DNA of 28,144 nt from Acidobacteriota bacterium (lineage in GTDB: Bacteria; Acidobacteriota; Terriglobia; Acidiferrales; UBA7541): assembly GCA_016179005.1 (NCBI GenBank), contig JACOSF010000023.1, forward strand, positions 1 to 28,144, given 5' to 3'. Positions 1,274 through 28,144 of the stretch are shown one piece after another (the stretch's first letter is position 1; every line of letters starts with the position of its first letter). A program made the position numbers and the translations under genes. A model generated the notes under the pieces. The model was not told where the DNA came from. It ran no database searches and was given only the letters and a program-made list of their open reading frames with translations.

Positions 1274-1354
1274 TTGCGGCTCCGACTTTTTGTAACTTAT
1301 TCTCCTTGCTTGACTTGGAGCTCTTAGCAAAAGTGTGAAGCAGCACGCCATTCT

Positions 1355-1370
1355 TGGAAGCTGCCTTGCA
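1355..1370 (+). promoter_or_regulatory. Putative sigma54 (-24/-12) promoter of the EPS operon
   Basis: TGGAAGCTGCCTTGCA has GG at 1356-57, exactly 10 nt, then GC at 1368-69 within TTGCA. It lies about 60 nt upstream of ATG 1432. Confidence 0.5.
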
Positions 1371-1431
1371 CATTGTTCCTGTGAAGCGGTTCATTCCGCA
1401 GACAAGGGGATTCTGTTTGCGTGGAGGAGCG

Positions 1432-2406
1432 ATGGAAGTCAGGCAGTCGGACTTGGAGTCAAGCGTGGCTGTAGCCACCACCTTACAAGGCAATCACGCC
1501 TACGTGCCAGCGCTGAGCCCGGCCATGCGCGCGGTGGAGCGGGTGATAGTGGATATCGCACCCACGGACATCCCCGTGCTGATCGAGGGCGAAAGTGGAA
1601 CCGGGAAGGAAGTAGTAGCGGCACAAATCCACCGGCTGTCCATGCGCCGGAGCGAGCCGTTCACCAAGGTGAGTTGTGCGGCGCTGACGCCGGAGTTCTT
1701 CAGCACGCGCGCGCACAACGGAGCGAACGGGTCGGAATCCTGCGGCATCTTCCTGTTGGACGAAATCAGTGAATTGGATCCCGCCTGCCAGCCGAAGCTG
1801 CTGCATGTGCTGCCGGACGGGGACGCACTGCCATTGGAAGGTGCGCTGGCGGCGCTGGGAGCACGGGTGATCTGTACGACGTCGCGAAACCTGGAAGAGG
1901 AGATGCGCGCAGGGCGCTTCCGCGAAGATCTCTACTTCCGGATCAACGGGGTGTGCTTGCGGCTGCCGCCGCTGCGCCACCGCAAGGAAGACGTGCCGGT
2001 GCTGGCGAGCTATTTCTTGTCCAAATACGCGGCGCAGTTCGGGCGGCCGCAGCCAAAGCTGAGCGGGTTCGTGCTGGCGCAGTTCGGCGAATACGACTGG
2101 CCGGGGAACATCCGGGAGCTGGAAAACGCAGTGAAAAAGATCGTGGCGCTGGGAGACGAGCGGGCCGCCGTGGCCGACCTGCGGGCCCGGGCGGCAGCAC
2201 AAGGCAACAGCGGCGGCACAGAGATCCTCTCATTGAAGGATGCCGCGCGGACCGCCAGCCGTCAGGCTGAGCGGGAGCTGATCCTGAAGGTGCTGGGACG
2301 CACGCGCTGGAACCGCAAGCGCGCCGCGCAGGAGTTGCAGATCAGCTACAAAGCCTTGCTCTACAAACTGAAACAGATTGGGTTGGATGACCAGACGGCT
2401 TCCTAA
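1432..2406 (+). CDS. Atypical NtrC/Fis-family AAA+ transcriptional regulator (no receiver domain, no GAFTGA loop)
   Basis: Walker A GESGTGKE, Walker B FLLDEISE, FREDLYFRIN, WPGNIRELEN and a C-terminal Fis HTH (WNRKRAAQELQISYKALLYKLK). Strong SD GGAGGAG at 1423-1429 precedes ATG 1432. Confidence 0.9.
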   Translation: MEVRQSDLESSVAVATTLQGNHAYVPALSPAMRAVERVIVDIAPTDIPVLIEGESGTGKEVVAAQIHRLSMRRSEPFTKVSCAALTPEFFSTRAHNGANGSESCGIFLLDEISELDPACQPKLLHVLPDGDALPLEGALAALGARVICTTSRNLEEEMRAGRFREDLYFRINGVCLRLPPLRHRKEDVPVLASYFLSKYAAQFGRPQPKLSGFVLAQFGEYDWPGNIRELENAVKKIVALGDERAAVADLRARAAAQGNSGGTEILSLKDAARTASRQAERELILKVLGRTRWNRKRAAQELQISYKALLYKLKQIGLDDQTAS

Positions 2407-17355: not shown

Positions 17356-19707
17356 GTGACACAACTCCTCAACCCGGGACTGTGGAAGCGGCTGGCGCGA
17401 ATGTCCGCGGCTGAGTTGTTTGACCGCGGGCGGCAGGAAATTGCCAAGCGCCGGGACGCGGCGCTCCATCGTTTGGGCCGTCATTTCGAAGGCGACGCTC
17501 CGCTCGCGGCTGCGCCTGCGCGTGCGCATTTTTTTTTCGAGCCGGACGAATTGGAGGACCGCGCCGCGCTCTTCCGCAGCCGTTTTCCGGAAGAAGCGCA
17601 AGCGCTGCTCGCGCGGGCGGAGCGCATCTGCCGGCACCGCTTTGACCTCCTGGGCTACGAAGACGTCGATTATGGCGGCGAAATCGACTGGCACTTCGAC
17701 GCAGTAAACGGACGGCGTGCGCCGCAGAAGCCGTGGCACAAGATCCGGCTGCTCGAGTTCGAGGAAGTCGGCGACGTCAAGGTCACCTGGGAGCTCAACC
17801 GGCATCAGCATTTTTTCACGCTGGCCCTGGCCGAACGCATGACCCAGGACGGGCGGTTCGCTGGCGAACTGGTGCGGCAGTGGATTTCTTGGCGCGAAGC
17901 AAATCCCTATCCCATCGGCATCAACTGGGCAAGCAGCCTGGAAGTGGCGTTTCGCGCGATGTCGTGGCTGTGGGCGCGGGCGCTGCTCGAGAATTGTCCG
18001 CACCTGCCGGGTGAATTCCGCGTGGGCTTGTTGCGAGCACTTGCACTCGGCGCGCGCCACATCGAAACGCATCTTTCCACTTATTCCTCGCCGAATACTC
18101 ACTTACTGGGCGAAGCCGTAGGACTTTTGTTTATCGGGACTCTTTGTCCGGAGTTGCCGGCGGCGGCACGGTGGCAGCAGAAAGGCTGGCGGATCATCCT
18201 CGAGCACGCGGAGCAAAAGGTGCGCGAGGACGGCTTCTACTTCGAGCAATCCACCTACTACCACGTATATGCGCTCGATTTCTTCCTGCACGCCCGGATC
18301 CTGGCGACAGCGAATGGGATGGCGATACCGGTTGCACTCGACCGGACGATCGAAAAAATGCTGGAGCTGCTTTGCGTGCTGGGGCGCGCGGGCGAGCCGC
18401 CACGCTGGGGCGACGACGACGGCGGGCGCGTCTTCGATCCACGGCGCAACCAAGCGCAACACCTGCTGGATCCGCTCTCGACGGGCGCGGTGCTTTTCGG
18501 CCGCGGAGATTTCAAGAACATCGTGGGCGGGCTGCGTGCGGAGACGCTGTGGCTGTTGGGCCGGCGCGGCGCCGAGAAGTTCGACGAGACTCCCGCGCAT
18601 GCGCCGGCGCGCACGTCCGCCCATTTCGAAGAGAGTGGGATTCATGTGATGGCGGGGTCGCAAGGGCCTCCGCAGCAAGTGGTCATCGATGGTGGGCCGC
18701 TCGGCAGCGGCACCGGGGGCCATGGCCATGCGGATACACTGAGCCTGCACCTCACGGTGGATGGCCACGAATGCCTGGCCGACCCGGGAACATTTCTCTA
18801 TGTGGCGTCGCAGGGCGAGCGCGATGCCTTCCGCGGTTCGGCCGCGCACAACGTGCTCCTCGTGGACGGGAAAGACCACGCGGAAATGGGCGGGCCGTTT
18901 TCGTGGCGTGCGCGGCCAGAAGCGCGAGTCGAACAGTGGGTCACAGCCGAAGAGTTCGACCTGTTTGTGGCCAGCCACGATGGCTACACGCGGCTGCCGC
19001 AGCCGATCACGCACCGCCGCTGGGTTTTTTATCTGCGCAACCGCTTCTGGCTGGTGCGCGACGTCGTGGTGGGGAGTGGTACGCACGACGTGGAAATCAA
19101 CTGGCATCTGGCGCCAGGTTTGCAACCCTCGGCCACCACCGCAAACGTGCTGCGCGCGGAAGTCAGCGCGCGGTCGGCGCTGGCGTTTGTGGCGCCCGAC
19201 GGGCACGATTGGGAGCAGTCACTCGAATCCGGATGGTACTCGCCCGCCTACGGAAAGAAGATACAGAGTCCGCTGCTGCGTTTCCGGCGGCACGCGCAAC
19301 TCCCGGCAGAGTTCGCTACAATGATTTGTGTTACGGGAGCTTTGGCCGAAGCGCCCGAATCACTTTTGCGCATGAAGGGACCTGCGAAAGGCGATGTGTC
19401 CGGCTACGAGTATGCGACGGCGCAAGGGAGCCACGTGCTGATTTTCTCGGACAGCGACTGCGTCTGGAAACTGGGGTCGTGGGCGAGTGACGCGAAAATG
19501 TTCTATTGCCAGCGGGCGCGGGACGGCGCACTCCAGCATTTCGCGCTGGTCCAGGGAAGTTTCGTGGAACACGACGGCCACAAGATCCTTTTCGCGGAGC
19601 GGCGCGTGACGCGGTGTGAAGCGTGGCAGGAAGCCGGTGGCTGGAGAGTTTCCTGCCCGGCCGGCGAATCCGTCCGCGTGGCGGAACAACTGGAAAAGGC
19701 CCACTAG
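17356..19707 (+). CDS. Heparinase II/III-family (oligo-alginate-lyase-like) protein
   Basis: DVKVTWELNRHQHF, SPNTHLLGEA, EQSTYYH, DDDGGR, GHGHADTLS, DPGTFLY, AAHN. No signal peptide visible. Confidence 0.88.
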   Translation: MTQLLNPGLWKRLARMSAAELFDRGRQEIAKRRDAALHRLGRHFEGDAPLAAAPARAHFFFEPDELEDRAALFRSRFPEEAQALLARAERICRHRFDLLGYEDVDYGGEIDWHFDAVNGRRAPQKPWHKIRLLEFEEVGDVKVTWELNRHQHFFTLALAERMTQDGRFAGELVRQWISWREANPYPIGINWASSLEVAFRAMSWLWARALLENCPHLPGEFRVGLLRALALGARHIETHLSTYSSPNTHLLGEAVGLLFIGTLCPELPAAARWQQKGWRIILEHAEQKVREDGFYFEQSTYYHVYALDFFLHARILATANGMAIPVALDRTIEKMLELLCVLGRAGEPPRWGDDDGGRVFDPRRNQAQHLLDPLSTGAVLFGRGDFKNIVGGLRAETLWLLGRRGAEKFDETPAHAPARTSAHFEESGIHVMAGSQGPPQQVVIDGGPLGSGTGGHGHADTLSLHLTVDGHECLADPGTFLYVASQGERDAFRGSAAHNVLLVDGKDHAEMGGPFSWRARPEARVEQWVTAEEFDLFVASHDGYTRLPQPITHRRWVFYLRNRFWLVRDVVVGSGTHDVEINWHLAPGLQPSATTANVLRAEVSARSALAFVAPDGHDWEQSLESGWYSPAYGKKIQSPLLRFRRHAQLPAEFATMICVTGALAEAPESLLRMKGPAKGDVSGYEYATAQGSHVLIFSDSDCVWKLGSWASDAKMFYCQRARDGALQHFALVQGSFVEHDGHKILFAERRVTRCEAWQEAGGWRVSCPAGESVRVAEQLEKAH
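17529..17537 (+). repeat. T9 homopolymer in the 5' part of the heparinase gene
   Basis: CAT TTT TTT TTC GAG (H-F-F-F-E); the longest homopolymer I noticed in the window. Confidence 0.6.
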
Positions 19708-19709
19708 CG

Positions 19710-21596
19710 ATGTGTGGAATCTGCGGCGTCTTTCACCAACACGGCAATCGCACCGTCGAGCGGGCCACGCTCGAAGCTATGAACCGGCAAATGATCCACC
19801 GCGGCCCGGACGACGAAGGATTTTTCTTGGGCGGGCCCGTCGGATTTGGCGCGCGGCGCCTGGCCATCGTCGATGTGGCCGCTGGGCACCAGCCTCTTTC
19901 GAATGAAGACGGCAACATCTGGATCGCGTTCAACGGCGAGATCTACAACCATCCCGAATTGCAACCCATGCTGGAAGCGCGCGGGCACCGCTATCGCACC
20001 CATTGCGACACGGAGACCGTTGTCCACTGCTACGAAGAATACGGCGAACGGATGGTGGAGAAGTTGCGCGGCATGTTTGCGTTCGCCATCTGGGATGCGC
20101 CGCGGAAGCGGCTGCTGGTCTACCGCGACCGTCTGGGCATTAAGCCGCTCTACTACTGCCGTCTGGGTGAGACGCTGCTGTTTGCTTCTGAAGTGAAGGT
20201 GTTGCTCGAATACGGCGCGCCGTTCGGCGTGAACGAAGCCGTGCTGGAATGCTACCTGCGGCTCGGCTACGTGCCGGGCGAGCAGACGCTCTTTCGCGAC
20301 ATCTACAAACTCTTGCCCGGCCACTTTCTGGTTGCCGACCAGGGCCAGTCCGAGCTGCGCATCGAGCGCTACTGGAAGCCGCCGTTCGCGCCCGGCGCGG
20401 AGCGCAGCGAAGCGGAATACGCCGCAGAATTTGTCGCGTTGCTCGAGGAGACGGTTGCGCAGCACCGGCTGGGCGAACGGCCGCAGGGAACGTTCCTGAG
20501 CGGCGGCGTGGATTCGAGCTCGATCGTGGCCATCAACGCGCGGCAGGTGCGCGAGCCGGTGATGACCTTCTCCATCGGCTATGCGGAAGAGCGCGACGTC
20601 AGCGAATTCCCCTACGCGCGGAAAGTGGCGCAACAGTACGGCGCGCAGCACCACGAGTTCGAGCTTTCCCTCGGTTCCTTCGCTGAAGCTCTTCCCAAGC
20701 TGGTCTGGCACATGGACGAGCCCGTGGCAGATATGGCCGCCATCCCGCTCTACTTCATCGCCCAGCTCGCGCGCGAGAAAATTACGGTGGTGCATTCCGG
20801 GGAAGGCGCGGACGAAATCCTGGCCGGGTATTCAATCTACTCGAAGATGAAATGGATTTCGGGCTTGCAGAAAAAAGTGGGCGCCCTCGGCTCACGGCTG
20901 CTCGCGCGCAGCCTGAGCCTGCCGGGGCTGCCGGTGCGTGTGAACCGCTACGCCGACTGGCTGGATAAGCCGCTAATGGAACGCTACCAGGGAGTGCGCC
21001 GGCTGCTGACCGAGAATTGGATGCGCAACCTCGGGCGGAATGGTTTTCCCGGAGTGGAACACGCCGCCTACCGCGCGCAGTTTTTTGCTGAGCTCTACGG
21101 CCGCTACCAGGGCGCCGACGAATTGAACCAGATGCTGGCCGCTGACCAGCAAGCCTGGCTGCCGGACGACCTGCTGGTCAAGGCCGATAAGATGACCATG
21201 GCGGCGTCCATCGAGTTGCGCGTGCCGTTTCTGGACCACCGCGTGGTGGAGTTCGCGGGGAACTTGCCGGTGTCGCTGAAATTGCATGACGGCGAGCACA
21301 AGTACCTGCTGAAGAAAATCATGCGGGAGCGGCTGCCGTCGGAAATTTTGGACGCGCCGAAGCGTGGCTTCCCCATCCCGCTCGCGCAATGGTTCCGTGG
21401 AAAACTCCACAACGCGGCGCGCGGCTGGCTGCTGGACTCGCCGTTCCTGCGGAACTATTTCCGCGCCGAACAAATGGAACGCATGCTGGAAACACACCGC
21501 ACCGGACAAGCCGACCTGAGCGGCGAAATTCACGGACTGGCCTGCCTGGGGATTTGGCACGAAGTTTTCGGCCGCCCGGGGAAAAACCCCTCCTGA
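19710..21596 (+). CDS. asnB: Asparagine synthase (glutamine-hydrolysing) family amidotransferase, probably amidating a sugar carboxylate
   Basis: N-terminal MCGI (Ntn Cys), HRGPD, FNGEIYNH, DRLGIKPLYY, LSGGVDSS, SGEGADE, KADKMTMAASIELRVPFLDH, PKRGF. Confidence 0.95.
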   Translation: MCGICGVFHQHGNRTVERATLEAMNRQMIHRGPDDEGFFLGGPVGFGARRLAIVDVAAGHQPLSNEDGNIWIAFNGEIYNHPELQPMLEARGHRYRTHCDTETVVHCYEEYGERMVEKLRGMFAFAIWDAPRKRLLVYRDRLGIKPLYYCRLGETLLFASEVKVLLEYGAPFGVNEAVLECYLRLGYVPGEQTLFRDIYKLLPGHFLVADQGQSELRIERYWKPPFAPGAERSEAEYAAEFVALLEETVAQHRLGERPQGTFLSGGVDSSSIVAINARQVREPVMTFSIGYAEERDVSEFPYARKVAQQYGAQHHEFELSLGSFAEALPKLVWHMDEPVADMAAIPLYFIAQLAREKITVVHSGEGADEILAGYSIYSKMKWISGLQKKVGALGSRLLARSLSLPGLPVRVNRYADWLDKPLMERYQGVRRLLTENWMRNLGRNGFPGVEHAAYRAQFFAELYGRYQGADELNQMLAADQQAWLPDDLLVKADKMTMAASIELRVPFLDHRVVEFAGNLPVSLKLHDGEHKYLLKKIMRERLPSEILDAPKRGFPIPLAQWFRGKLHNAARGWLLDSPFLRNYFRAEQMERMLETHRTGQADLSGEIHGLACLGIWHEVFGRPGKNPS

Positions 21597-21622: not shown

Positions 21623-23395
21623 CTATCGTGCAGGGGGCTTGACGTTCACCACGACGCCCTCTGTGGCCTTTTCCAGGGCATCGATGTCCGCGCCGGGGTC
21701 CTTGCCGCCGATGCCGGCCTTGCGGTACTTGCTCGAAGGGAGCAGCCGATAATCACCCGCAGCGAAGTTGCGGAACTGCATTTTTTCTAATTTCCCCTCG
21801 AACGAATTCTTGCCGGGATAGGGCACGAGAGCCGGGCCAACGATGACGTTCCTATCGAAGGTGCTATGCGGGGTGTGAAAGGCAAGCGTTACCGATCCGT
21901 CCGCAGTGCCGTTGCCGCCGACGCCGCGCACGCCGCTCCAAACGATGTTGTTGCGGAAGACGAAGCGTTCGGGCAGCCGATTGGGGCCCCGCCCCGGGCC
22001 AGGGCCGGCGAAGAAAGCAATCCACTGGTCTTCAAAAACCGTGTTGTTTTCCAGCACAATGTCGTCAACGGGGCCGATGACCTGAAACATTTTTCCTTCG
22101 CCGCCCCAGACGGCGCTGGAAACATCCTCGACGACGTTATCGTGAATGTGCCAGCGGCGCGCGCGGAGGCAGCCTTCCGGCACCTGATTCTCGGAGCAAA
22201 CCACGTCGGGCGGGGAGGCAGGCCCCTTGCCGTTATCCCCGGGAGAGAAAAAACGGGAATTGATCCAGCTCGAAGCGTGAGCAAATCGGTTGTAGCGAAT
22301 AGTGATGTCCTGCACGCGAGCCTGCGGCACCGCGCCCAGTTCGTGGGCCGGCGTAAGCACCAGCATGTAGCCGCGCTGGCCGCCGGTGGAGGGCCACGTG
22401 TTCTCTACCACGTTGCCTTCGACCAGGATGCGCTGGCCATTCTTCACCTCGAGGTGATTCTTCACTTGCCAGGGGGTGCCGGCGAAGGCGGGATTGCCGG
22501 GGCGCCAGGAGAGCGGCTTGAAAAAATGATTACGGCGAATCTCGATGTCCGACGGCACTACGCCTTCGATCACTTTCGGCGAGCCGCCGAACATCACGTT
22601 TTCGCCGGAGGCTTCCAGATAGTTGTTGACGATCTTCAGCGGCCCCCGAAAGTTCCAGCCGCCGATGGCCTGGGAATCGTTGCCCACCTCGTGGATGTCC
22701 GAAATATAACTATCAATGATGCCGACGTAGTCGGCGCCGATCCAGATGCCCCGACGCATGTTCCCTTGCGGATGGCCATGAATGTAGCAGCGGTCCACGA
22801 TGAAGTGATGGGGCAGGTCGCTGAGCGACGTTGCGCCGGCGGGCAGAGGGGCCAGCGAGAGAATGCCGCTTTGCGTGGCCATGCCCTCCGTCATCCCCAT
22901 CTCAATGCCGATGAAACGGTAGTGATGCGAACGCGCCCGGGCGACGAATGGGCGGCCGTTCATGAAGTTTCCGAGGATCTTGGGCATGAACTGGGCGTGC
23001 AACGCAGGATGGACGCGGGTACCTTCGGGCGCAAGCTTTTCCAGCGCCGAAGTTCGGATGATGATCCAGCCTTCGCCGGAGGTTTTCTCCGTCAGGTTGA
23101 ATTCACCGGGGCAGGTGAGGCTGGCATCAATGACGATGGTGTCACCGAGCGCAGCTTCGTCGATGGTCTTTTGCAGCAGGTTGCAGGCGGAGACGTTACG
23201 CGTCTTGCCGGATTGGACCGGCATCGTCGTGTCCACGAAAACGCGGGGAAGCTCCGAGTGGCCTGCCTGGGGTTTTTCGTCGGAGGGCAGGGGCACGGCG
23301 GAATTCAAGTCAATTGAGCCGCAATACACTGCGGCGAGCAAAAGCAGAAGGCAAGCGAAGCCGAGGGAGCCGTTCATCGTGGTGTGGTTGAGCAT
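21623..23395 (-). CDS. Exported right-handed parallel beta-helix protein (pectin-lyase-like fold; candidate polysaccharide lyase, hydrolase or epimerase)
   Basis: Hydrophobic N-terminus (FACLLLLLAAVY), GDTIVI, repeated Asn-ladder strands (IVNNYLE, IRRNHF, VEGNVVEN, IRYNRF, IHDNVVE, LENNTV, FRNNIV), C-terminal DYRLLPSS...GKDPGADI. Alternative start 23377. Confidence 0.75.
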   Translation of the reverse strand: MLNHTTMNGSLGFACLLLLLAAVYCGSIDLNSAVPLPSDEKPQAGHSELPRVFVDTTMPVQSGKTRNVSACNLLQKTIDEAALGDTIVIDASLTCPGEFNLTEKTSGEGWIIIRTSALEKLAPEGTRVHPALHAQFMPKILGNFMNGRPFVARARSHHYRFIGIEMGMTEGMATQSGILSLAPLPAGATSLSDLPHHFIVDRCYIHGHPQGNMRRGIWIGADYVGIIDSYISDIHEVGNDSQAIGGWNFRGPLKIVNNYLEASGENVMFGGSPKVIEGVVPSDIEIRRNHFFKPLSWRPGNPAFAGTPWQVKNHLEVKNGQRILVEGNVVENTWPSTGGQRGYMLVLTPAHELGAVPQARVQDITIRYNRFAHASSWINSRFFSPGDNGKGPASPPDVVCSENQVPEGCLRARRWHIHDNVVEDVSSAVWGGEGKMFQVIGPVDDIVLENNTVFEDQWIAFFAGPGPGRGPNRLPERFVFRNNIVWSGVRGVGGNGTADGSVTLAFHTPHSTFDRNVIVGPALVPYPGKNSFEGKLEKMQFRNFAAGDYRLLPSSKYRKAGIGGKDPGADIDALEKATEGVVVNVKPPAR

Positions 23396-23413
23396 AGTTT
23401 AAGCGCGGTGGGA

Positions 23414-23443
23414 ACAATATCACTCGCCCACGGCCTCTGTAAA
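23414..23443 (-). promoter_or_regulatory. Putative sigma70 promoter of the beta-helix gene
   Basis: Minus strand TTTACA-N18-TATTGT with an extended -10 (TG-A-TATTGT). Confidence 0.5.
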
Positions 23444-23553
23444 TTGGACGCCCAAAAGGCCCCCAAGAGTTGGCCGGTTGGCAACGGAATGTGCAGCAGG
23501 CGGTGCCCGATTTGGCGGTGATATGGGATGATTGTCGGTTGGAGTTCGCACGT

Positions 23554-23588
23554 TCCGGCGGAGAGTTTCCCGCCGGACAATACTCTCC
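23554..23588. repeat. Two interleaved inverted repeats in the second divergent intergenic region
   Basis: TCCGGCGG (23554-61) pairs with CCGCCGGA (23570-77); GGAGAGT (23560-66) pairs with ACTCTCC (23582-88). Confidence 0.6.
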
Positions 23589-23656
23589 TGCGGCCAAGAA
23601 GCGTCTGAAGCCGGTTACGGGCTGCGGCTGGGAACGAGCGTCCGGAGGCTCATGGC

Positions 23657-24637
23657 ATGAGGTATCTGTACGTCACCGGGGGAAAACAGAAGCCGCGGCT
23701 CCTGAAGTCGGAAGAAGAATGGAACCTCTACGAACGGGCGCTGATCCTTCGGCTGGACACGCAAGCGAAGACTTCAGAAGTGTGTGTTGATTACGTTTCG
23801 CCGGCGGAGGCGCAACCGGACGACGTTTCCTCCATCCTGTTCAAGGCCGGAACGCTCGAGGGCCGTCGAATGTGGGTGACCACCTCGACCGAGGTACTCA
23901 TCTACGACGTGCCGGGCTTCCAAGCGGCCGGCCGCATCTCGCTGCCGTGCTTCCACGACGTGCATCACGTGGTGCCGACGCCGGAAGGGAACCTGCTGAT
24001 CGCCAACACAGGGCTGGACATGGTGGCGGAAATCACGCCGGACGGCAAGACCCTGCGGGAGTGGGACGTGCTGGGAGAGCCGCTCTGGACGCGCTTCTCC
24101 CGCGAAACCGACTACCGTAAGGTGGCTTCGACCAAGCCGCACAAGTCGCATCCGAATTTTGTTTTCTTCCTTGGGAATGAACCATGGGTGACGCGCTTCA
24201 AGCAGAAGGACGCCCTTTGCCTGACGCAACCCGAGCGGCGCATCGCCATTGAGGTGGAAAAGCCGCACGACGGCGTGAAATTCGGCGAATGGCTCTACTT
24301 TACGACCGTGGACGGGCGGGTGGTCATCGCAAACCAAAGGAGCCTGAGCGTCGAACAGGTGGTGGACCTGAACAAAATCGACGGCGGCGAAGGGCACATC
24401 CTCGGCTGGTGCCGCGGCATCCTCGTGGTGGACGAACGGAGAGTCTGGGTGGGCTTCACGCGCATCCGGCACACGAAGTTCAAGGAAAATGTCCTCTGGG
24501 TCAAACATGCGTTCCACGAAGTGGACCGCCCGACGCACATGACCCTTTACGACCTCGTGGAGAAAAAGGCCCTGACCGAAATCAATCTCGAGGAATGCGG
24601 GGTCAACATCATTTTCGGTATTCTCCCGGCGACATGA
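23657..24637 (+). CDS. Uncharacterised beta-propeller protein with conserved-looking His motifs (DUF4915/arylsulfotransferase-like by pattern)
   Basis: GGAGG SD 8 nt upstream, repeated four-stranded blade-like segments, motifs HDVHH, HPN, PHDG and WCRGI. No signal peptide. Confidence 0.7.
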   Translation: MRYLYVTGGKQKPRLLKSEEEWNLYERALILRLDTQAKTSEVCVDYVSPAEAQPDDVSSILFKAGTLEGRRMWVTTSTEVLIYDVPGFQAAGRISLPCFHDVHHVVPTPEGNLLIANTGLDMVAEITPDGKTLREWDVLGEPLWTRFSRETDYRKVASTKPHKSHPNFVFFLGNEPWVTRFKQKDALCLTQPERRIAIEVEKPHDGVKFGEWLYFTTVDGRVVIANQRSLSVEQVVDLNKIDGGEGHILGWCRGILVVDERRVWVGFTRIRHTKFKENVLWVKHAFHEVDRPTHMTLYDLVEKKALTEINLEECGVNIIFGILPAT

Positions 24638-24671
24638 AGCATGAATTGGTGCCTGCCTGAGGTGCGAAGGT

Positions 24672-24697
24672 GCTGCGAAAGGAGCCGGCGGCGCAGC
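24672..24697. terminator. Possible hairpin between convergent genes
   Basis: GCTGCG-N14-CGCAGC in the 61 bp gap; no U-tract. Confidence 0.2.
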
Positions 24698-24698
24698 T

Positions 24699-25850
24699 TC
24701 ATGCCCGCTTCGGCGGCGTAATGAGGCGGAACCGATAGTCGCGGTACTTGCCCGGGTCGCCTTGCTGGTCGTCACAAGCAGCGAGGATAATATTCACCAT
24801 CTCCCGCGCGGTCGTGAAATGCAGGCGGCAGGCCCCATCTACCCGCGCAGCCGCGATGAGTTCCCCCAAAAATCTCTGCATCGGCGGGCCGAACATGGCC
24901 GCTTCATCGCGGGGATCCATTCCGTGACAATGCAATTTGATGAAAATCCAGTCGGGACGGCCCTGAACGCAGACCGCCGCCTGCTTCCACAAGCTCAATC
25001 GGTCGAGGCTCGCAGGGTTCTTGCCGGACAACTCCGCGTTCTCGATGCTGGGCAGCGGCAGTCCATTGCGACGCTCCCGAAAGGTCAGCATCAATGGCCC
25101 CTGCACGATTAGCGGGAAAATCTGCGGCGCATGCCCGCATCGCAAATTGCGACCTTTGCGATGCGGGGCGCGCTGCTGGAGGGGCAGGACACATTCGTAG
25201 AGCGAGTTGATCTTGGCCACCTGGGCGCGGCTGGGCGCGGAAGGCATCGTCAGATCGGCATAGCAGCCGGTTTCCGCCAGGATCTGCATCTCGTCGTCCA
25301 CTCCGCAGAATCTGCCTTGCGCGGAATTTGCCAAAGCCCAGTTGCCGTGCACGAAAGCGTACCGCGGCGGCCCGCTGCCTTGCCATCGCGAAAGACAGCC
25401 GTGCCGGACCAGCGTGTCTCTGTACTCCGAGAGCACATGCCGCGTGTTTTCGGAAGTGTCTGGAGCGGTGATCCCGTGGTGCAGGTGAATCTCCAGCTCG
25501 CCCCAGCCTGCCTGGCAGTGGGCAGCAATGCCCTCGATTAATTCCTGCTGATATTGTTCGGCCGGGTAGAAAAATGTGTGGCGGAAGGGATAGCCATCGC
25601 TGTCGCGGAATTCTGTGAGGGCTTGCGGATACTCCCGGCACCAGCGTTCCAGCCGCCGCTCCTGTTCGTGCAATGGGGCAGCCTGCCCAGGTGCCTCCGG
25701 GAGGATTCCCGGCTCGAAGTGATCCGCGAGCGCAAAGATCAGATCAACTTGACCGCGCCCCGGTCCGCGGCGTGCGAGCCGCTGCAAAACAAAAGAGGGC
25801 AGCCACCGCAGGGTGTGCCACAGCTTTGCGGACTTGCTCATCGGGGCCAT
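24699..25850 (-). CDS. Uncharacterised protein with a NodB/CE4-like (polysaccharide deacetylase) motif pattern
   Basis: DLIFALADHFEP, HTFF, ELEIHLHH, YAFVHGNWAL, YADLTMP, IKLHCHG and LHFTTAREM occur in NodB-barrel order. Start uncertain (GTG 25898, ATG 25850 or ATG 25841). Confidence 0.65.
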   Translation of the reverse strand: MAPMSKSAKLWHTLRWLPSFVLQRLARRGPGRGQVDLIFALADHFEPGILPEAPGQAAPLHEQERRLERWCREYPQALTEFRDSDGYPFRHTFFYPAEQYQQELIEGIAAHCQAGWGELEIHLHHGITAPDTSENTRHVLSEYRDTLVRHGCLSRWQGSGPPRYAFVHGNWALANSAQGRFCGVDDEMQILAETGCYADLTMPSAPSRAQVAKINSLYECVLPLQQRAPHRKGRNLRCGHAPQIFPLIVQGPLMLTFRERRNGLPLPSIENAELSGKNPASLDRLSLWKQAAVCVQGRPDWIFIKLHCHGMDPRDEAAMFGPPMQRFLGELIAAARVDGACRLHFTTAREMVNIILAACDDQQGDPGKYRDYRFRLITPPKRA

Positions 25851-25881
25851 AAACTGGAATTGAATTCGCCTTTTCGAAGTT

Positions 25882-27213
25882 TCAGGAGCTCCGCTCACGC
25901 ACTACCTGCACCAGCTTGCCTTGGGGTGTGCGGGGAATCTGCTCCACCCAGGTCCAGCGGAATGGAGTCTCGCCCAAAAAGCTCCGCAGCACGTGCTTCA
26001 GTTCCTCTTCGCGCGCCGCAGAGAAGCCCACGCCCTTCAGAAGAAGCTGCAACCCGCCGTCCTGTTTCAAAATGATCTGGAAATGGTGCACCTCGGAAAA
26101 CTCCTTAAACAGGTGGTTCCAGAAGAGGTTGCCGACCTTTTTTCCACTGGGCAACTCGAGGATCGAGCCGGTCCTGCCGTGCAAATCGCGCAGCGTGCGG
26201 ATGCCGGATTCATCCTGATCCGAGGAATCGGCCGCCGCGAGATCGCCGATTTCATACCGCAGAAACGGCGTGCCACGGCAGATGGTGCTGGAGCAAAGCA
26301 CACGTCCCGGAACGCCCGGGCTTGCGGGTTTGTTCTGGTCATCCACAATCTCCAGGAAGACCCAGGGGCGCATCACGCGCATCAGTTCGCCCTCACGGAA
26401 CTGGCAGGCGATGACGGAAAACTCCCGGCCGCCGTAGCGATTGAGAATGGTCGCGCCAAACGCCTTGCGGAAGATGTCCACCTGCGCGGGATACAGCATT
26501 TCACCGCCGTTCCACGCCGTGCATACACTGCCCAATGGCGGCGACGCTTTCATGGCCAGGGTCTCGCGGGCCACGTGCTCCAGCATGGAAGTAAAGCCGT
26601 ACATGGCCACGGGTTGGTGGCGCCGGATGAGATGCAGAACGCGCTCGGCGGTTGCGCGATCCAGGCTGTAGCCGGCAACCACGTAGTTGCGCGCGAAGCG
26701 GTTCCACTGATCGATGCGGAATGGTATGGACTTGCCGATATCCCGCTCGCCGCCCCAGACGATGACCGTGCCCATCCCCGGCTTCCAGCCCATCTGCGTG
26801 CGTGTGTAAATATTTGAACTCACGCCAGCGCGGATCATCTCCGGATCGTGGAAGAACTGCGTCGGCTCGCCAGTGGAGCCGCCGGTGGCATCGCAGCGGC
26901 CTTTCAACTTGAAGCGCGCCTGCATCTGGCGCGGCTCAAATATGGACTTGAGCATGCTCCGGGTGACCACGGGCAAAGACGCCCAGTTTCGCCAGAGCTC
27001 GTCGGGATCGCGGAGGCGCGCGGCATCACGCCATTCAGGCAAGGCGTCCGCGCGGTTTCCAAAGTACTGAAGCTGCGCCAGAAGACGTTCGGCGAGGACG
27101 CGCCGCTGGCGTTCCGGCGTCAGGGCAGGGAATTCCTCCAGCTCATTCCACGGACGGCTACTGCGAGCCAGGTAGTTACGCCACCAGAGCTTGCTCGCCA
27201 GTCGGGTGATCAT
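25882..27213 (-). CDS. Phenylacetate-CoA ligase family (PaaK/CapK-like) adenylate-forming enzyme
   Basis: ATGGSTGEP P-loop, NGGEML, NRYGGREF, PFLRYEIGD, IPRTPQGK. ATG 27213 chosen because the ORF-track extension to 27408 lies inside the DUF362 gene. Confidence 0.85.
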   Translation of the reverse strand: MITRLASKLWWRNYLARSSRPWNELEEFPALTPERQRRVLAERLLAQLQYFGNRADALPEWRDAARLRDPDELWRNWASLPVVTRSMLKSIFEPRQMQARFKLKGRCDATGGSTGEPTQFFHDPEMIRAGVSSNIYTRTQMGWKPGMGTVIVWGGERDIGKSIPFRIDQWNRFARNYVVAGYSLDRATAERVLHLIRRHQPVAMYGFTSMLEHVARETLAMKASPPLGSVCTAWNGGEMLYPAQVDIFRKAFGATILNRYGGREFSVIACQFREGELMRVMRPWVFLEIVDDQNKPASPGVPGRVLCSSTICRGTPFLRYEIGDLAAADSSDQDESGIRTLRDLHGRTGSILELPSGKKVGNLFWNHLFKEFSEVHHFQIILKQDGGLQLLLKGVGFSAAREEELKHVLRSFLGETPFRWTWVEQIPRTPQGKLVQVVRERSS

Positions 27214-28144
27214 CCTTGGTCCCCAGTTCGCAATGTCCCTGCCAGCCCCGCGGAGGGCAAAAGGCGCGCGCGTCGAATGGGAAGATCTCGTCTGCGGAGC
27301 GTTCAGCGGAATCCATGCGCACGCGGATCGCCGCGGGGGCGAAGGCCACCAGCGGGTACGGGAAACTCGCGAAGGCCTCGCGCACCAGCGGAATCCTTCG
27401 CGGATCAAGACCCATCAACCGGCAGTGGACCCATTCGGCCGCGGCCGGATTCACGGCGCCAGTCAAGAAACCCGACGGCACCGCCGTCGGCGCCATGGGT
27501 CCATCCCCCTCGCCGCCGATGATGGCGTCGGTGATGCTGATTAGCTTTCGCTGCGGCGCATCTGCGAGCGTGCCATCTGCCCGGCCGTAGACGGCAATCC
27601 GCTGCAGATCCAGGCTGGTGCGCCACACTGTGTCGTTGCCGAACCAGGAGCCTTCCAAATTGTTGTCGCTCCCCAGCAGCACGGCGCCGCGAATCAGAAT
27701 CGCCGCGGCGCGGGCTAGCGCCACCTGGAAGCGGCCGGGGCGCGCCCGGTTTGCGATGTCGAGCAAATCTTCGGCGCGACCTTTCAGCCAGGAACGGCCG
27801 GCATAACAATCACCCCCGCTGCTGCCTCCGCCTTTGCGGTGGTGCGGCAAATATTCTTTATGCCCGTTGATGCCGACAAGGTTCTTCAGGGCGCCGGTGA
27901 CGCAGGCCTTTTTGTGGGTCTTGAGTTTCGGAAGGTTGATGATCGCGTCCGATTCGAGGATTTCGCGGGCAATCAGATATTGGTGCCGCTGCGGGGCATG
28001 GGTGCGGTGCAGAAGGTCGGGGTTGTACATCGTCACGCGGAATTTTTTGGAATCCGCACGCAGCGGTTCGAGCAGGCTTTTTTCTTTCAAATCGAAGAGG
28101 ACGTACTGCTCCATGCTGCGGCACTCTTCGATTTTGCTCCGCCC
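27176..28144 (-). CDS. DUF362 domain protein, 5'-truncated by the window edge
   Basis: SDAIINLPKLKTH, GALKNLVGIN, ITDAIIGGEGDGP. The frame stays open upstream of ATG 28114 to the window end (GRSKIEECRS-MEQY). Overlaps the ligase start by 38 nt. Confidence 0.85.
   Translation of the reverse strand, partial: GRSKIEECRSMEQYVLFDLKEKSLLEPLRADSKKFRVTMYNPDLLHRTHAPQRHQYLIAREILESDAIINLPKLKTHKKACVTGALKNLVGINGHKEYLPHHRKGGGSSGGDCYAGRSWLKGRAEDLLDIANRARPGRFQVALARAAAILIRGAVLLGSDNNLEGSWFGNDTVWRTSLDLQRIAVYGRADGTLADAPQRKLISITDAIIGGEGDGPMAPTAVPSGFLTGAVNPAAAEWVHCRLMGLDPRRIPLVREAFASFPYPLVAFAPAAIRVRMDSAERSADEIFPFDARAFCPPRGWQGHCELGTKDDHPTGEQALVA

Follow-up and report, generated by a model that had tools for sequence, protein, structure and literature searches.

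The five genes that follow the exopolysaccharide (EPS) operon in the window, the 28,144-nucleotide stretch of DNA analysed here and one whole contig of an Acidobacteriota MAG (60% complete), raise the question of whether they encode a single coupled pathway, as originally predicted, or a set of separately inherited functions. The source organism has been described as a soil acidobacterium. The reading favoured here, with a probability of about 0.7, is that an XrtA-like exosortase Wzx/Wzy EPS locus has its variable "decoration" end here, a mosaic of four independently inherited units (C; E and D; B; A) rather than one pathway. The folds, family sizes and gene neighbourhoods given below are tool results, while every chemical step proposed for A to E is inferred from those folds and neighbourhoods; a fold alone does not establish what an enzyme catalyses.

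Organisation of the locus

The window is an XrtA-like exosortase, Wzx/Wzy-type EPS locus, its marker genes encoding an exosortase, chain-length determinant, ATPase, tyrosine kinase, TIGR03013 priming transferase, Wzy, Wzx and AsnB. The plus-strand EPS operon ends with a heparinase II/III-like gene and an XrtA-system-like asnB, and all five flagged ORFs (A to E) are present, each with many conserved relatives:

17356..21596, plus strand: heparinase II/III-like gene and XrtA-system-like AsnB amidotransferase gene (Pfam and NCBIfam matches)
21623..23395, minus strand: A, 590 aa, exported, probably a right-handed beta-helix
23396..23656, no strand: divergent A-B intergenic region, 261 bp
23657..24637, plus strand: B, 326 aa, six-bladed beta-propeller (AlphaFold2)
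24699..25850, minus strand: C, 383 aa, NodB/CE4-type (beta/alpha)7 barrel (AlphaFold2)
25882..27204, minus strand: D, 440 aa, PaaK/CapK-type adenylate-forming ligase (Pfam AMP-binding)
27176..28144, minus strand: E, DUF362, LarA clan, C-terminal 322 of about 503 residues (PF04015)

The genes had been described as abutting with gaps of 26-61 bp or overlaps, and the coordinates bear this out for the convergent asnB and A (26 bp apart), the convergent B and C (61 bp), D and C (31 bp) and the overlap of E with D (29 nt), the description having left out the 261-bp divergent gap between A and B. This intergenic region contains one sigma-70-like site upstream of A, a count not above that in shuffled sequence. 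An antisense ORF at 23774-24775 had no family matches and was taken as spurious. E, D and C all lie on the minus strand with little or no space between them. In a sister genome of the same genus (G002) the gene order is identical with protein identities of 82-88%, the locus there also carrying EpsI, a PEP-CTERM protein and a long TPR protein.

Distribution and predicted functions of the five genes

AlphaFold2 models and Pfam matches confirmed the NodB-like fold, adenylating ligase, DUF362 and propeller identities that had been read from the sequence, and the proposed link to polysaccharide loci held, with each unit found in such loci elsewhere. The C ORF extends from 24699 to 25898, and since homologues are 380-383 aa long the start was placed at 25850, giving 383 aa. 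C has more than 5,490 homologues, which fall into 1,194 clusters at 50% identity and carry no Pfam domain, and C itself did not match PF01522. The model is a NodB-type barrel (pLDDT 94.8, pTM 0.94) with VIA Z scores of 16.6 to 3qbu (HP0310 PgdA), 16.3 to an insect chitin deacetylase (5znt), 14.1 to Agd3 (6nwz), 13.4 to the NDST1 deacetylase domain (9f6z) and 13.1 to ArnD (8t0j), and residues D43, H44, E46, H122, H124, H125, H168, D199, H309 and H344 are invariant or nearly so. The gene is found inside exosortase EPS loci in several phyla, lying in many Terriglobia loci between Wzy and AsnB or GT4, with asnB (44/80), a heparinase-like gene (33/80) and a double GT4 (37/80) as companions across 80 C loci. 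The C family, which is undescribed, regularly forms part of the core of exosortase EPS loci. In other organisms the domain is fused to Beta_helix/NosD (one cluster of 987-aa proteins), Polysacc_deac_1, hexapeptide acyltransferase and GT2 domains. C is predicted to be a NodB-fold hydrolase that depends on a metal; as no signal peptide or hydrophobic segment was seen by eye, it would be cytoplasmic, and it would most likely act on the lipid-linked repeat unit, deacylating an amino sugar there by removal of N-acetyl or a different acyl group.

E and D are a conserved adjacent pair, the only one among the five genes. Of 23 Acidobacteriota loci with a long DUF362 gene, 19 have a D-like gene next to it, and most E-D loci have asnB, GT4, heparinase-like or Wzy genes nearby; in the four loci with E but no D, LpxB or GT9 genes adjoin instead. 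D matches Pfam AMP-binding at 43 bits (cut-off 29.9) and phenylacetate-CoA ligase in the PDB (9s3l, E 1.5e-6), its 508-aa ORF being over-extended relative to the ATG start in the sister genome, which gives 440 aa. E matches DUF362 (PF04015) at 56.7 bits (cut-off 24) and lacks its 5′ part because the contig ends; the full-length orthologue in the sister genome is 503 aa (L006:12212-13723, minus strand), and homologues of about 490 aa number more than 5,000. To our knowledge no reaction has been assigned to any DUF362 member. The overlapping pair would act as a translationally coupled cassette, in which D would adenylate a carboxylate and, by analogy with VpsH of Vibrio cholerae, most likely couple an amino acid or amine through an amide bond to a uronic acid in the lipid-linked repeat, and E would provide a companion step, possibly an epimerisation or a redox reaction.

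The B family is undescribed and linked to sulfate-activation genes. Its more than 2,290 homologues carry no Pfam domain, and B did not match the HMMs of DUF4915 (PF16261), TIGR03032 or PF05935. The AlphaFold2 model is a six-bladed propeller (pLDDT 90) with conserved His, His-x-Asn, His-Asp and Arg motifs, giving VIA Z scores from 24 down to 17.6 against six-bladed propellers, and the nearest named shapes were DUF4915 clusters (TM 0.68-0.72). The guess that the propeller is connected with sulfation gained support from context: in 22 of 59 metagenome loci a B homologue has PAPS synthase, CysQ, TauE or sulfotransferase genes next to it, against 2/80 control C loci; the metagenome loci are mutually related, so that the counts overstate independence. 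Clustered at 80% identity, 13 of 29 B-locus clusters contain sulfation genes, arranged in several ways. About half of the B loci have no sulfation gene, some of them lying among housekeeping genes, and in a subset of loci B neighbours Wzx, CE4 deacetylase, FemAB-like and other EPS genes. In the sister genome a Sulfotransfer_3 gene stands at the far end of the same locus as B, on the same contig, this being the only genome within the genus in which both genes were found; no PAPS or sulfotransferase genes were seen in the window's own MAG, which is 60% complete with its contig ending at the exosortase. DUF4915 propellers are themselves found fused to sulfotransferase domains, including the PAPS type. 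Because B has no signal peptide it would be cytoplasmic, a propeller enzyme working with a PAPS sulfation system, and together with the far-end sulfotransferase of the sister genome it leads to the prediction of a sulfated EPS.

A is a recurrent companion of exosortase-type EPS loci, with A-like genes in 25 of 80 C loci. Its translation begins, by eye, with a hydrophobic signal-peptide-like segment, and the protein is probably an exported right-handed beta-helix: the original beta-helix identity is made probable by a language-model Atlas feature search that placed A among Beta_helix/NosD clusters (0.95-0.98), with no match in Pfam or NCBIfam. In the sister genome, just to the right of the region corresponding to the window, a TIG-repeat protein exceeding 2,000 aa terminates in a domain 58% identical to A. 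Once exported, A may bind, cleave or epimerise the polymer outside the cytoplasm.

One pathway or four units

In a sample of 300 other genomes of the phylum, 20 had C, 22 had E, none had both and one had B. D and E lay near C in 2/80 C loci, C was absent from the neighbourhood of E in all 23 E loci, and B was near C in 0/80 C loci; counted from the B side, C was near B in 2/83 loci and A-like genes in 2/83. The lack of overlap between C and E (0/300), the rarity of D and E near C (2/80) and the absence of B near C (0/80) argue that the units are independent. The proposal that all five genes form one coupled pathway of deacetylation, re-acylation, epimerisation, sulfation and extracellular remodelling, giving a glycosaminoglycan-like EPS, failed the co-occurrence check that had been proposed alongside it and is very improbable: the genes are physically close in an order kept in the sister genome, heparinase-like and AsnB genes adjoin them and the sister locus has a sulfotransferase, but the five do not co-occur outside the genus, and A and B are transcribed separately, from opposite strands. 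The coupled DUF362-ligase-NodB trio fared better in part, the E-D pairing standing (19/23 loci) and the linkage to C not (2/80; 0/23). E, D and C are also co-oriented and tightly spaced in two Pyrinomonadaceae/Blastocatellia loci (L065 and L071), which together with the arrangement here makes a local functional link possible. A true chain within the genus, in which de-N-acetylation by C exposes an amine for D to re-acylate or to join to an acid prepared by E, is nonetheless rather unlikely. It would account for the co-orientation, the 29-nt overlap and 31-bp gap, and the trio in the sister genome, reordered in L065 and close together in L071, as well as for a genome (G059) in which C is directly followed by a D-like ligase gene after a tyrosine kinase gene and for two E-D cassettes (L092 and L093) followed by a different, weak CE4-like gene; against it stand the co-occurrence counts just given and the target of the analogue VpsH, a sugar carboxylate and not a freed amine (PMC13463779). 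As C and E-D are rarely together, deacetylation by C followed by re-acylation by D is at most a local arrangement, VpsH pointing instead to amidation of a uronic-acid carboxylate.

Two further readings concern what the neighbours act on, if anything. B could be a DUF4915-like propeller acting on protein, helping to modify the beta-helix protein A before export rather than a glycan, in keeping with the divergent positions of A and B 261 bp apart and with a DUF4915-sulfotransferase fusion (G141) that adjoins a Calx-beta/DUF11/IPTL-CTERM surface protein. This is quite improbable given that A-like genes are near B in so few loci, that the usual neighbours of B are PAPS, Wzx, CE4 deacetylase and FemAB-like genes and that homology between B and DUF4915 was not significant by HMM or hhalign. 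It is scarcely credible that the five genes, or some of them, stand here by chance and play no part in the EPS; some B homologues do lie among housekeeping genes and one E-D pair lies among peptidase genes, but EPS loci in many lineages contain A, C or the E-D pair, and B recurs by sulfate-activation genes and, in a subset, by Wzx, deacetylase and other EPS genes.

Comparison with known systems

C shares with the CE4/NodB de-N-acetylases (3qbu, 5znt, 6nwz, 9f6z, 8t0j) the (beta/alpha)7 barrel, at Z 13-16.6 over 214-274 residues, and conserved Asp and His clusters at the strand ends. It differs in having 8-16% sequence identity to them, no canonical TFDD or H(S/T)xxH motif, about 100 more residues, extra conserved His residues and no signal peptide seen by eye; its fusion to true CE4 domains suggests that the two probably do not duplicate each other's function. 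Among studied proteins the nearest analogue of D is VpsH, a PaaK/CapK-like protein of V. cholerae required, by genetics, for L-GulNAcA of lipid-linked VPS to carry its glycine amide (PMC13463779), and these genetics support the amidation analogy for D. D resembles VpsH in being short, of the PaaK/CapK adenylate-forming type and encoded within a Wzx/Wzy EPS locus, and is in contrast paired with a DUF362 protein. For E the relatives are LarA and DUF2088, which fall with DUF362 in Pfam clan CL0471 (PMC11770544).

B is a six-bladed propeller like ASST (3elq), Cpz4 (9kf6) and the DUF4915/TIGR03032 propellers, with ASST giving the longest structural alignment (276 residues, Z 21.8), although the Z values of B do not distinguish it from other propellers. 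Unlike B, which lacks a signal peptide and travels with PAPS synthesis genes, ASST works in the periplasm without PAPS. The synechan (xss) cluster of Synechocystis is likewise a Wzx/Wzy EPS locus with sulfotransferase genes (PMC8205485), differing in its phylum, in its sulfotransferases and in having no propeller partner, and its authors knew of no such clusters outside cyanobacteria (PMC8205485).

The closest systems overall are the XrtA/PEP-CTERM EPS loci (TIGR03109, TIGR03013, TIGR03007, TIGR03015, TIGR03018, TIGR03108), with which the window shares the exosortase, TIGR03013 priming transferase, Wzy, Wzx and AsnB-type amidotransferase, together with a split chain-length determinant and tyrosine kinase with the ATPase between them, its TIGR03007, TIGR03015, TIGR03018 and TIGR03108 markers scoring below the curated cut-offs. 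The deacetylase and FemAB-like pair usual in those loci was not seen in the window, which adds C, E-D, B and A as extra, undescribed families.

Genes at the end of the exopolysaccharide locus

The window is one complete contig (C355) of the 356 in the metagenome-assembled genome (MAG; 1.63 Mb, 60% complete), assigned to Acidobacteriota through named homologues, with bases 21 to 21,596 spanned by an exosortase-type Wzx/Wzy exopolysaccharide (EPS) locus, a locus type that is already known. The head of the locus encodes an exosortase followed by a sigma-54-type activator, a chain-length determinant, an XrtA-associated ATPase and a tyrosine kinase, while the remainder encodes a TIGR03013 priming transferase, GT2, Wzy, three GT4 domains, Wzx, a heparinase II/III-like protein and an AsnB-type amidotransferase. 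The exosortase scored 208.2 against TIGR03109 (cut-off 208) and the priming transferase 454.6 against TIGR03013 (cut-off 393), with the matches to TIGR03007, TIGR03015, TIGR03018 and TIGR03108 in the XrtA/PEP-CTERM partner test all falling under the curated cut-offs. The activator (window 1354-2406) is short (350 aa) with no receiver domain. With a start at its first GTG, the AsnB ORF would share 85 nt with the heparinase-like gene (window 19623-19707); the TIGR03108 alignment starts at residue 30 and therefore the true AsnB start is probably near 19710.

In a sister genome of the same genus (G002) the locus continues leftward beyond the equivalent of the window (locus L202, G002:C113, 12940-19492) with genes for both EpsI (DUF3485) and a 237-aa PEP-CTERM protein, a 763-aa TPR protein, an SDR epimerase/dehydratase and, as the last gene of the locus on that side, a Sulfotransfer_3 gene. 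The window contig stops at the exosortase, so this left-end part is simply missing from the MAG.

Five genes (A-E), all of them real, lie past the operon end:

21623-23395, minus strand: gene A, beta-helix-like protein
23657-24637, plus strand: gene B, propeller
24699-25850, minus strand: gene C, NodB-like protein, best placement
25882-27204, minus strand: gene D, ligase, 440 aa, start as in the sister genome
27176-contig end, minus strand: gene E, DUF362 protein, 5′ part lost at the contig end

The start of C was placed at 25850 because its homologues measure 380-383 aa. The asnB-A spacing is 26 bp, the divergent genes A and B are separated by 261 bp and B and C by 61 bp. A scan for promoters and terminators gave counts not above those in shuffled sequence.

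The original prediction had read these five genes as one coupled glycan-tailoring pathway, a chain that broke down when the families were followed across the same 300 other Acidobacteriota genomes. Homologues of C occurred in 20 of these and of E in 22, with none carrying both (chance expectation about 1.5), and B occurred in one. Co-occurrence with EPS loci was found for each of the genes, while co-occurrence with each other was not, a result that the original prediction had itself listed as counting against the chain. A local link inside the co-oriented E-D-C operon of this genus is kept as a rival explanation. In this operon D and C are 31 bp apart and E and D overlap by 29 nt, and the sister genome keeps all five genes in identical order at 82-88% identity, with a full-length E of 503 aa. 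In the neighbourhood samples D and E lay close to C in only two of 80 C loci (L065 and L071), and C was absent from all 23 E loci. Tight spacing at the end of an operon is as such poor evidence for a pathway, a warning that applies to annotation.

Fold and neighbourhood of gene C

Gene C gave no Pfam or NCBIfam match at E <= 0.01, PF01522 included, even with more than 5,490 close homologues in 1,194 clusters at 50% identity, a family for which there is no Pfam model. Searching the PDB by sequence, both with A, B, C and E and with C and B profiles, returned nothing meaningful, with C having no match at all. An AlphaFold2 model of C built from a 50-sequence alignment (pLDDT 94.8, pTM 0.94) ranked carbohydrate deacetylases first in exhaustive structural alignment (VIA), namely HP0310 PgdA (Z 16.6), insect chitin deacetylases (16.3 and 15.9), Agd3 (14.1), the human NDST1 deacetylase domain (13.4) and ArnD (13.1), with GH57 and GH38 barrels ranking next. 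Foldseek gave a probability of 1.00 against 3rxz and 5z34, and an Atlas shape search matched C to Polysacc_deac_1 clusters at TM 0.53-0.68. Each of the three comparisons recovered a NodB-type (beta/alpha)7 barrel and, since they agree, C is called NodB-like at the level of the fold, bearing out the name given to it in the original prediction. The fold is common to C and the CE4-like deacetylases, but C fails the sequence test for that family. CE4 membership is therefore not supported by sequence: C has no HMM match and its alignment, compared by hhalign with a true PF01522 domain (P0166:1-360), gave a probability of 0.2%, that is no detectable homology.

The conserved residues of C lie at strand ends and comprise D43, H44, H122, H124, H125, H168, H309 and H344; in the model the D43-H44 pair sits at the strand 1 end and the trio H122, H124 and H125 at that of a later strand. 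This Asp/His set would fit a metal-dependent hydrolase. By eye C has neither signal peptide nor membrane segment, and in the fusion P0139 a membrane helix precedes the C domain and carries positive charges on the side facing it, from which we infer that C is probably cytoplasmic. Elsewhere the C domain is fused to Beta_helix/NosD, true Polysacc_deac_1, hexapeptide acyltransferase or GT2 domains. The fusion proteins are P0126, P0134, P0139, P0141, P0144, P0166, P0179, P0183, P0219 and P0248; in P0126 (1,028 aa) a long C-terminal stretch is without any Pfam hit.

The neighbourhood of C was sampled at 80 loci from named species genomes, mainly of Acidobacteriota and also of Planctomycetota, Verrucomicrobiales, Omnitrophica, Brocadiaceae, Methylomirabilota, Gemmatimonadales and Binatia. 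The companions of C were asnB (44/80), a double GT4 (37/80), a heparinase-like gene (33/80), GT2 (30/80), Wzy (28/80) and an A-like gene (25/80), and many Terriglobia shared the order Wzz, ATPase, tyrosine kinase, priming transferase, GT2, Wzy and C, then AsnB or GT4. With EPS genes as recurrent companions, D and E rarely close by and B near C in none of the 80 loci, C thus counts as an independent and regular member of EPS loci.

Gene A has a signal-like N-terminus and gave no HMM match, including to the right-handed beta-helix PF13229; a feature search placed it among Beta_helix/NosD clusters (feature similarity 0.95-0.98), and an A-like homologue in locus L010 carries a faint Beta_helix match. 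Among the 25 C loci holding an A-like gene the two were directly adjacent about ten times, and A-like genes were present in 5/23 E loci. This recurrence, together with the beta-helix-C fusions, points to some loose connection in function between C and a beta-helix enzyme acting outside the cytoplasm, although the fused beta-helix is not detectably related to A (BLASTP of A against the beta-helix of one C fusion gave no match). A gene right of E in G002 (L006:13942-19998, minus strand) encodes a protein of more than 2,000 aa with 16 IPT/TIG repeats, the C-terminal domain of which shares 58% identity with A; this protein may be exposed at the surface and carry the same beta-helix module.

The DUF362-ligase pair

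Gene D matched Pfam AMP-binding (PF00501) with 43 bits (cut-off 29.9) and the phenylacetate-CoA ligase 9s3l in the PDB at E 1.5e-6, which identifies it as a short PaaK/CapK-type adenylate-forming enzyme. The CapK C-terminal domain (PF27533) had no match in the window D at E <= 1, with a weak match found only on a 51%-identical D homologue in the acidobacterial EPS locus L092. Gene E matched DUF362 (PF04015; cut-off 24) with 56.7 bits for the truncated window copy and 76.7 bits for the full-length G002 copy and sits in a well-conserved DUF362 subfamily of about 490 aa. The uncharacterised DUF362 family and the LarA racemases belong to one Pfam clan, CL0471, and the likeness of E to these nickel-pincer enzymes is one of clan membership only (PMC11770544).

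In 19 of the 23 E loci a D-like gene lay within about 1.5 kb of the E homologue, often overlapping it or coupled stop to start, and most of the E-D loci also carried asnB, GT4, heparinase-like, Wzy or tyrosine-kinase genes, with one pair found amid peptidase genes. Clustering of the neighbouring ORFs revealed no constant third partner, the simple ORF caller used being unreliable in GC-rich DNA. A complex prediction for E and D (G002 copies) scored 0.01, which is not evidence either way. The pair acts as a portable cassette moving between loci rather than as part of a fixed pathway. The remaining four E loci had no D. In two of these four (L100:7620-9197 and L107:7991-9223) the long DUF362 gene adjoins LpxB in one case and a GT9 heptosyltransferase gene in the other, a setting that suggests that such proteins may have a role in lipopolysaccharide besides EPS.

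The only studied analogue of D that could be verified is Vibrio cholerae VpsH, a PaaK/CapK-like protein required to place a glycine amide on the uronic acid in the lipid-linked disaccharide of VPS (PMC13463779). The two proteins are similar in kind and, by analogy with the amide role of VpsH, carboxylate amidation would be the best guess for the D reaction. In L092 and L093, metagenome contigs with acidobacterial EPS loci, a weakly CE4-like gene and an ATP-grasp gene come after the E-D cassette. Sulfotransfer_1 genes are present in these loci as well (two in L092, one in L093), as are an MBOAT gene and either an amine oxidase or an NRPS-like adenylation/carrier/thioesterase protein.

Propeller B and a possible sulfation of exopolysaccharides

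Homologues of gene B number more than 2,290 and lack any Pfam domain. Modelling of B (pLDDT 90) gave a six-bladed propeller, the structural matches of which grade continuously through other propellers, from Z 24 to 17.6. The longest alignment was to the E. coli aryl-sulfate sulfotransferase (276 residues, Z 21.8), with Cpz4 at Z 19.4, but neither score stands out from those of other propellers. There was no PF05935 match, the sole Pfam match being weak and Mala_s_1-like (19.3 bits, cut-off 27.5). The nearest named shapes were DUF4915/TIGR03032 clusters (TM 0.68-0.72; feature scores 0.95-0.99) and an Arylsulfotrans/Mala_s_1 cluster (TM 0.68/0.74), and a protein annotated 'CHP03032 domain' in AFDB gave TM 0.65/0.60. 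The PF16261 and TIGR03032 HMMs matched nothing in the genome at E <= 10, B included, and the hhalign comparisons of B with DUF4915/TIGR03032 were not significant (E 0.0023 and 0.029, probability 12% and 1.7%); membership of B in DUF4915/TIGR03032 is therefore unsupported by sequence, and B is an undescribed propeller family. A B-like propeller also occurs fused to an Acetyltransf_6 domain. No mention of DUF4915 or TIGR03032 was found in the literature.

The context of B was sampled at 59 loci with at least 3 kb of flank, 56 from metagenomes and three for individual homologues. An ATP-sulfurylase/APS-kinase fusion, a CysQ-like phosphatase, TauE or a Sulfotransfer_1 gene was present in 22 of these, corresponding to 13 of 29 clusters at 80% identity, while as a control the same queries matched only 2/80 C loci. 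The sulfation genes occurred in several gene orders and were frequently accompanied by Wzx, a CE4 deacetylase and a FemAB-like gene; other B loci lay amid unrelated genes. Within the genus, B and the Sulfotransfer_3 gene were found together only in G002, both on one contig, this gene being the sole sulfotransferase found among five genomes of the genus. In addition, both full DUF4915/TIGR03032 proteins found among 200 Acidobacteriota genomes are fused to Sulfotransfer_3 domains. Taken with the gene context and the co-presence in the genus, these fusions link B to sulfation, the link being one of gene neighbourhood. Queries for PAPS synthase, CysQ and sulfotransferases found none in the MAG itself, which at 60% completeness is not evidence of absence. 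The two DUF4915-sulfotransferase fusions lie at L198:1438-3222 and L199:1444-3972 (both minus strand); one of them also bears an Asp/Asn hydroxylase fragment, and the L198 fusion adjoins a Calx-beta/DUF11/IPTL-CTERM surface protein.

Soil aggregates are shaped by the slime polymers of Acidobacteriota, which rank among the most abundant bacteria in soil. The interest of the present locus lies mainly in the C and B families, two large families with no Pfam model that gain a confident fold and a testable role in polysaccharide tailoring, and in the sulfation lead. The B family, perhaps with its DUF4915 look-alikes, might represent a new class of glycan-sulfation enzyme, for example an ASST-like second-step sulfate carrier or transferase working alongside a PAPS-dependent sulfotransferase, an unlikely reading to which we assign a probability of about 15%. 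If true, many soil Acidobacteriota would make sulfated exopolysaccharides. For comparison, Maeda et al. described sulfotransferase genes in EPS clusters and sulfated EPS as unknown in bacteria besides cyanobacteria (PMC8205485). The gene content of the acidobacterial loci L092, L093, L115 and L116 and of G002 suggests otherwise and, with the link between B and PAPS genes and the presence of sulfotransferases in acidobacterial EPS loci, sulfated EPS may exist outside the cyanobacteria.
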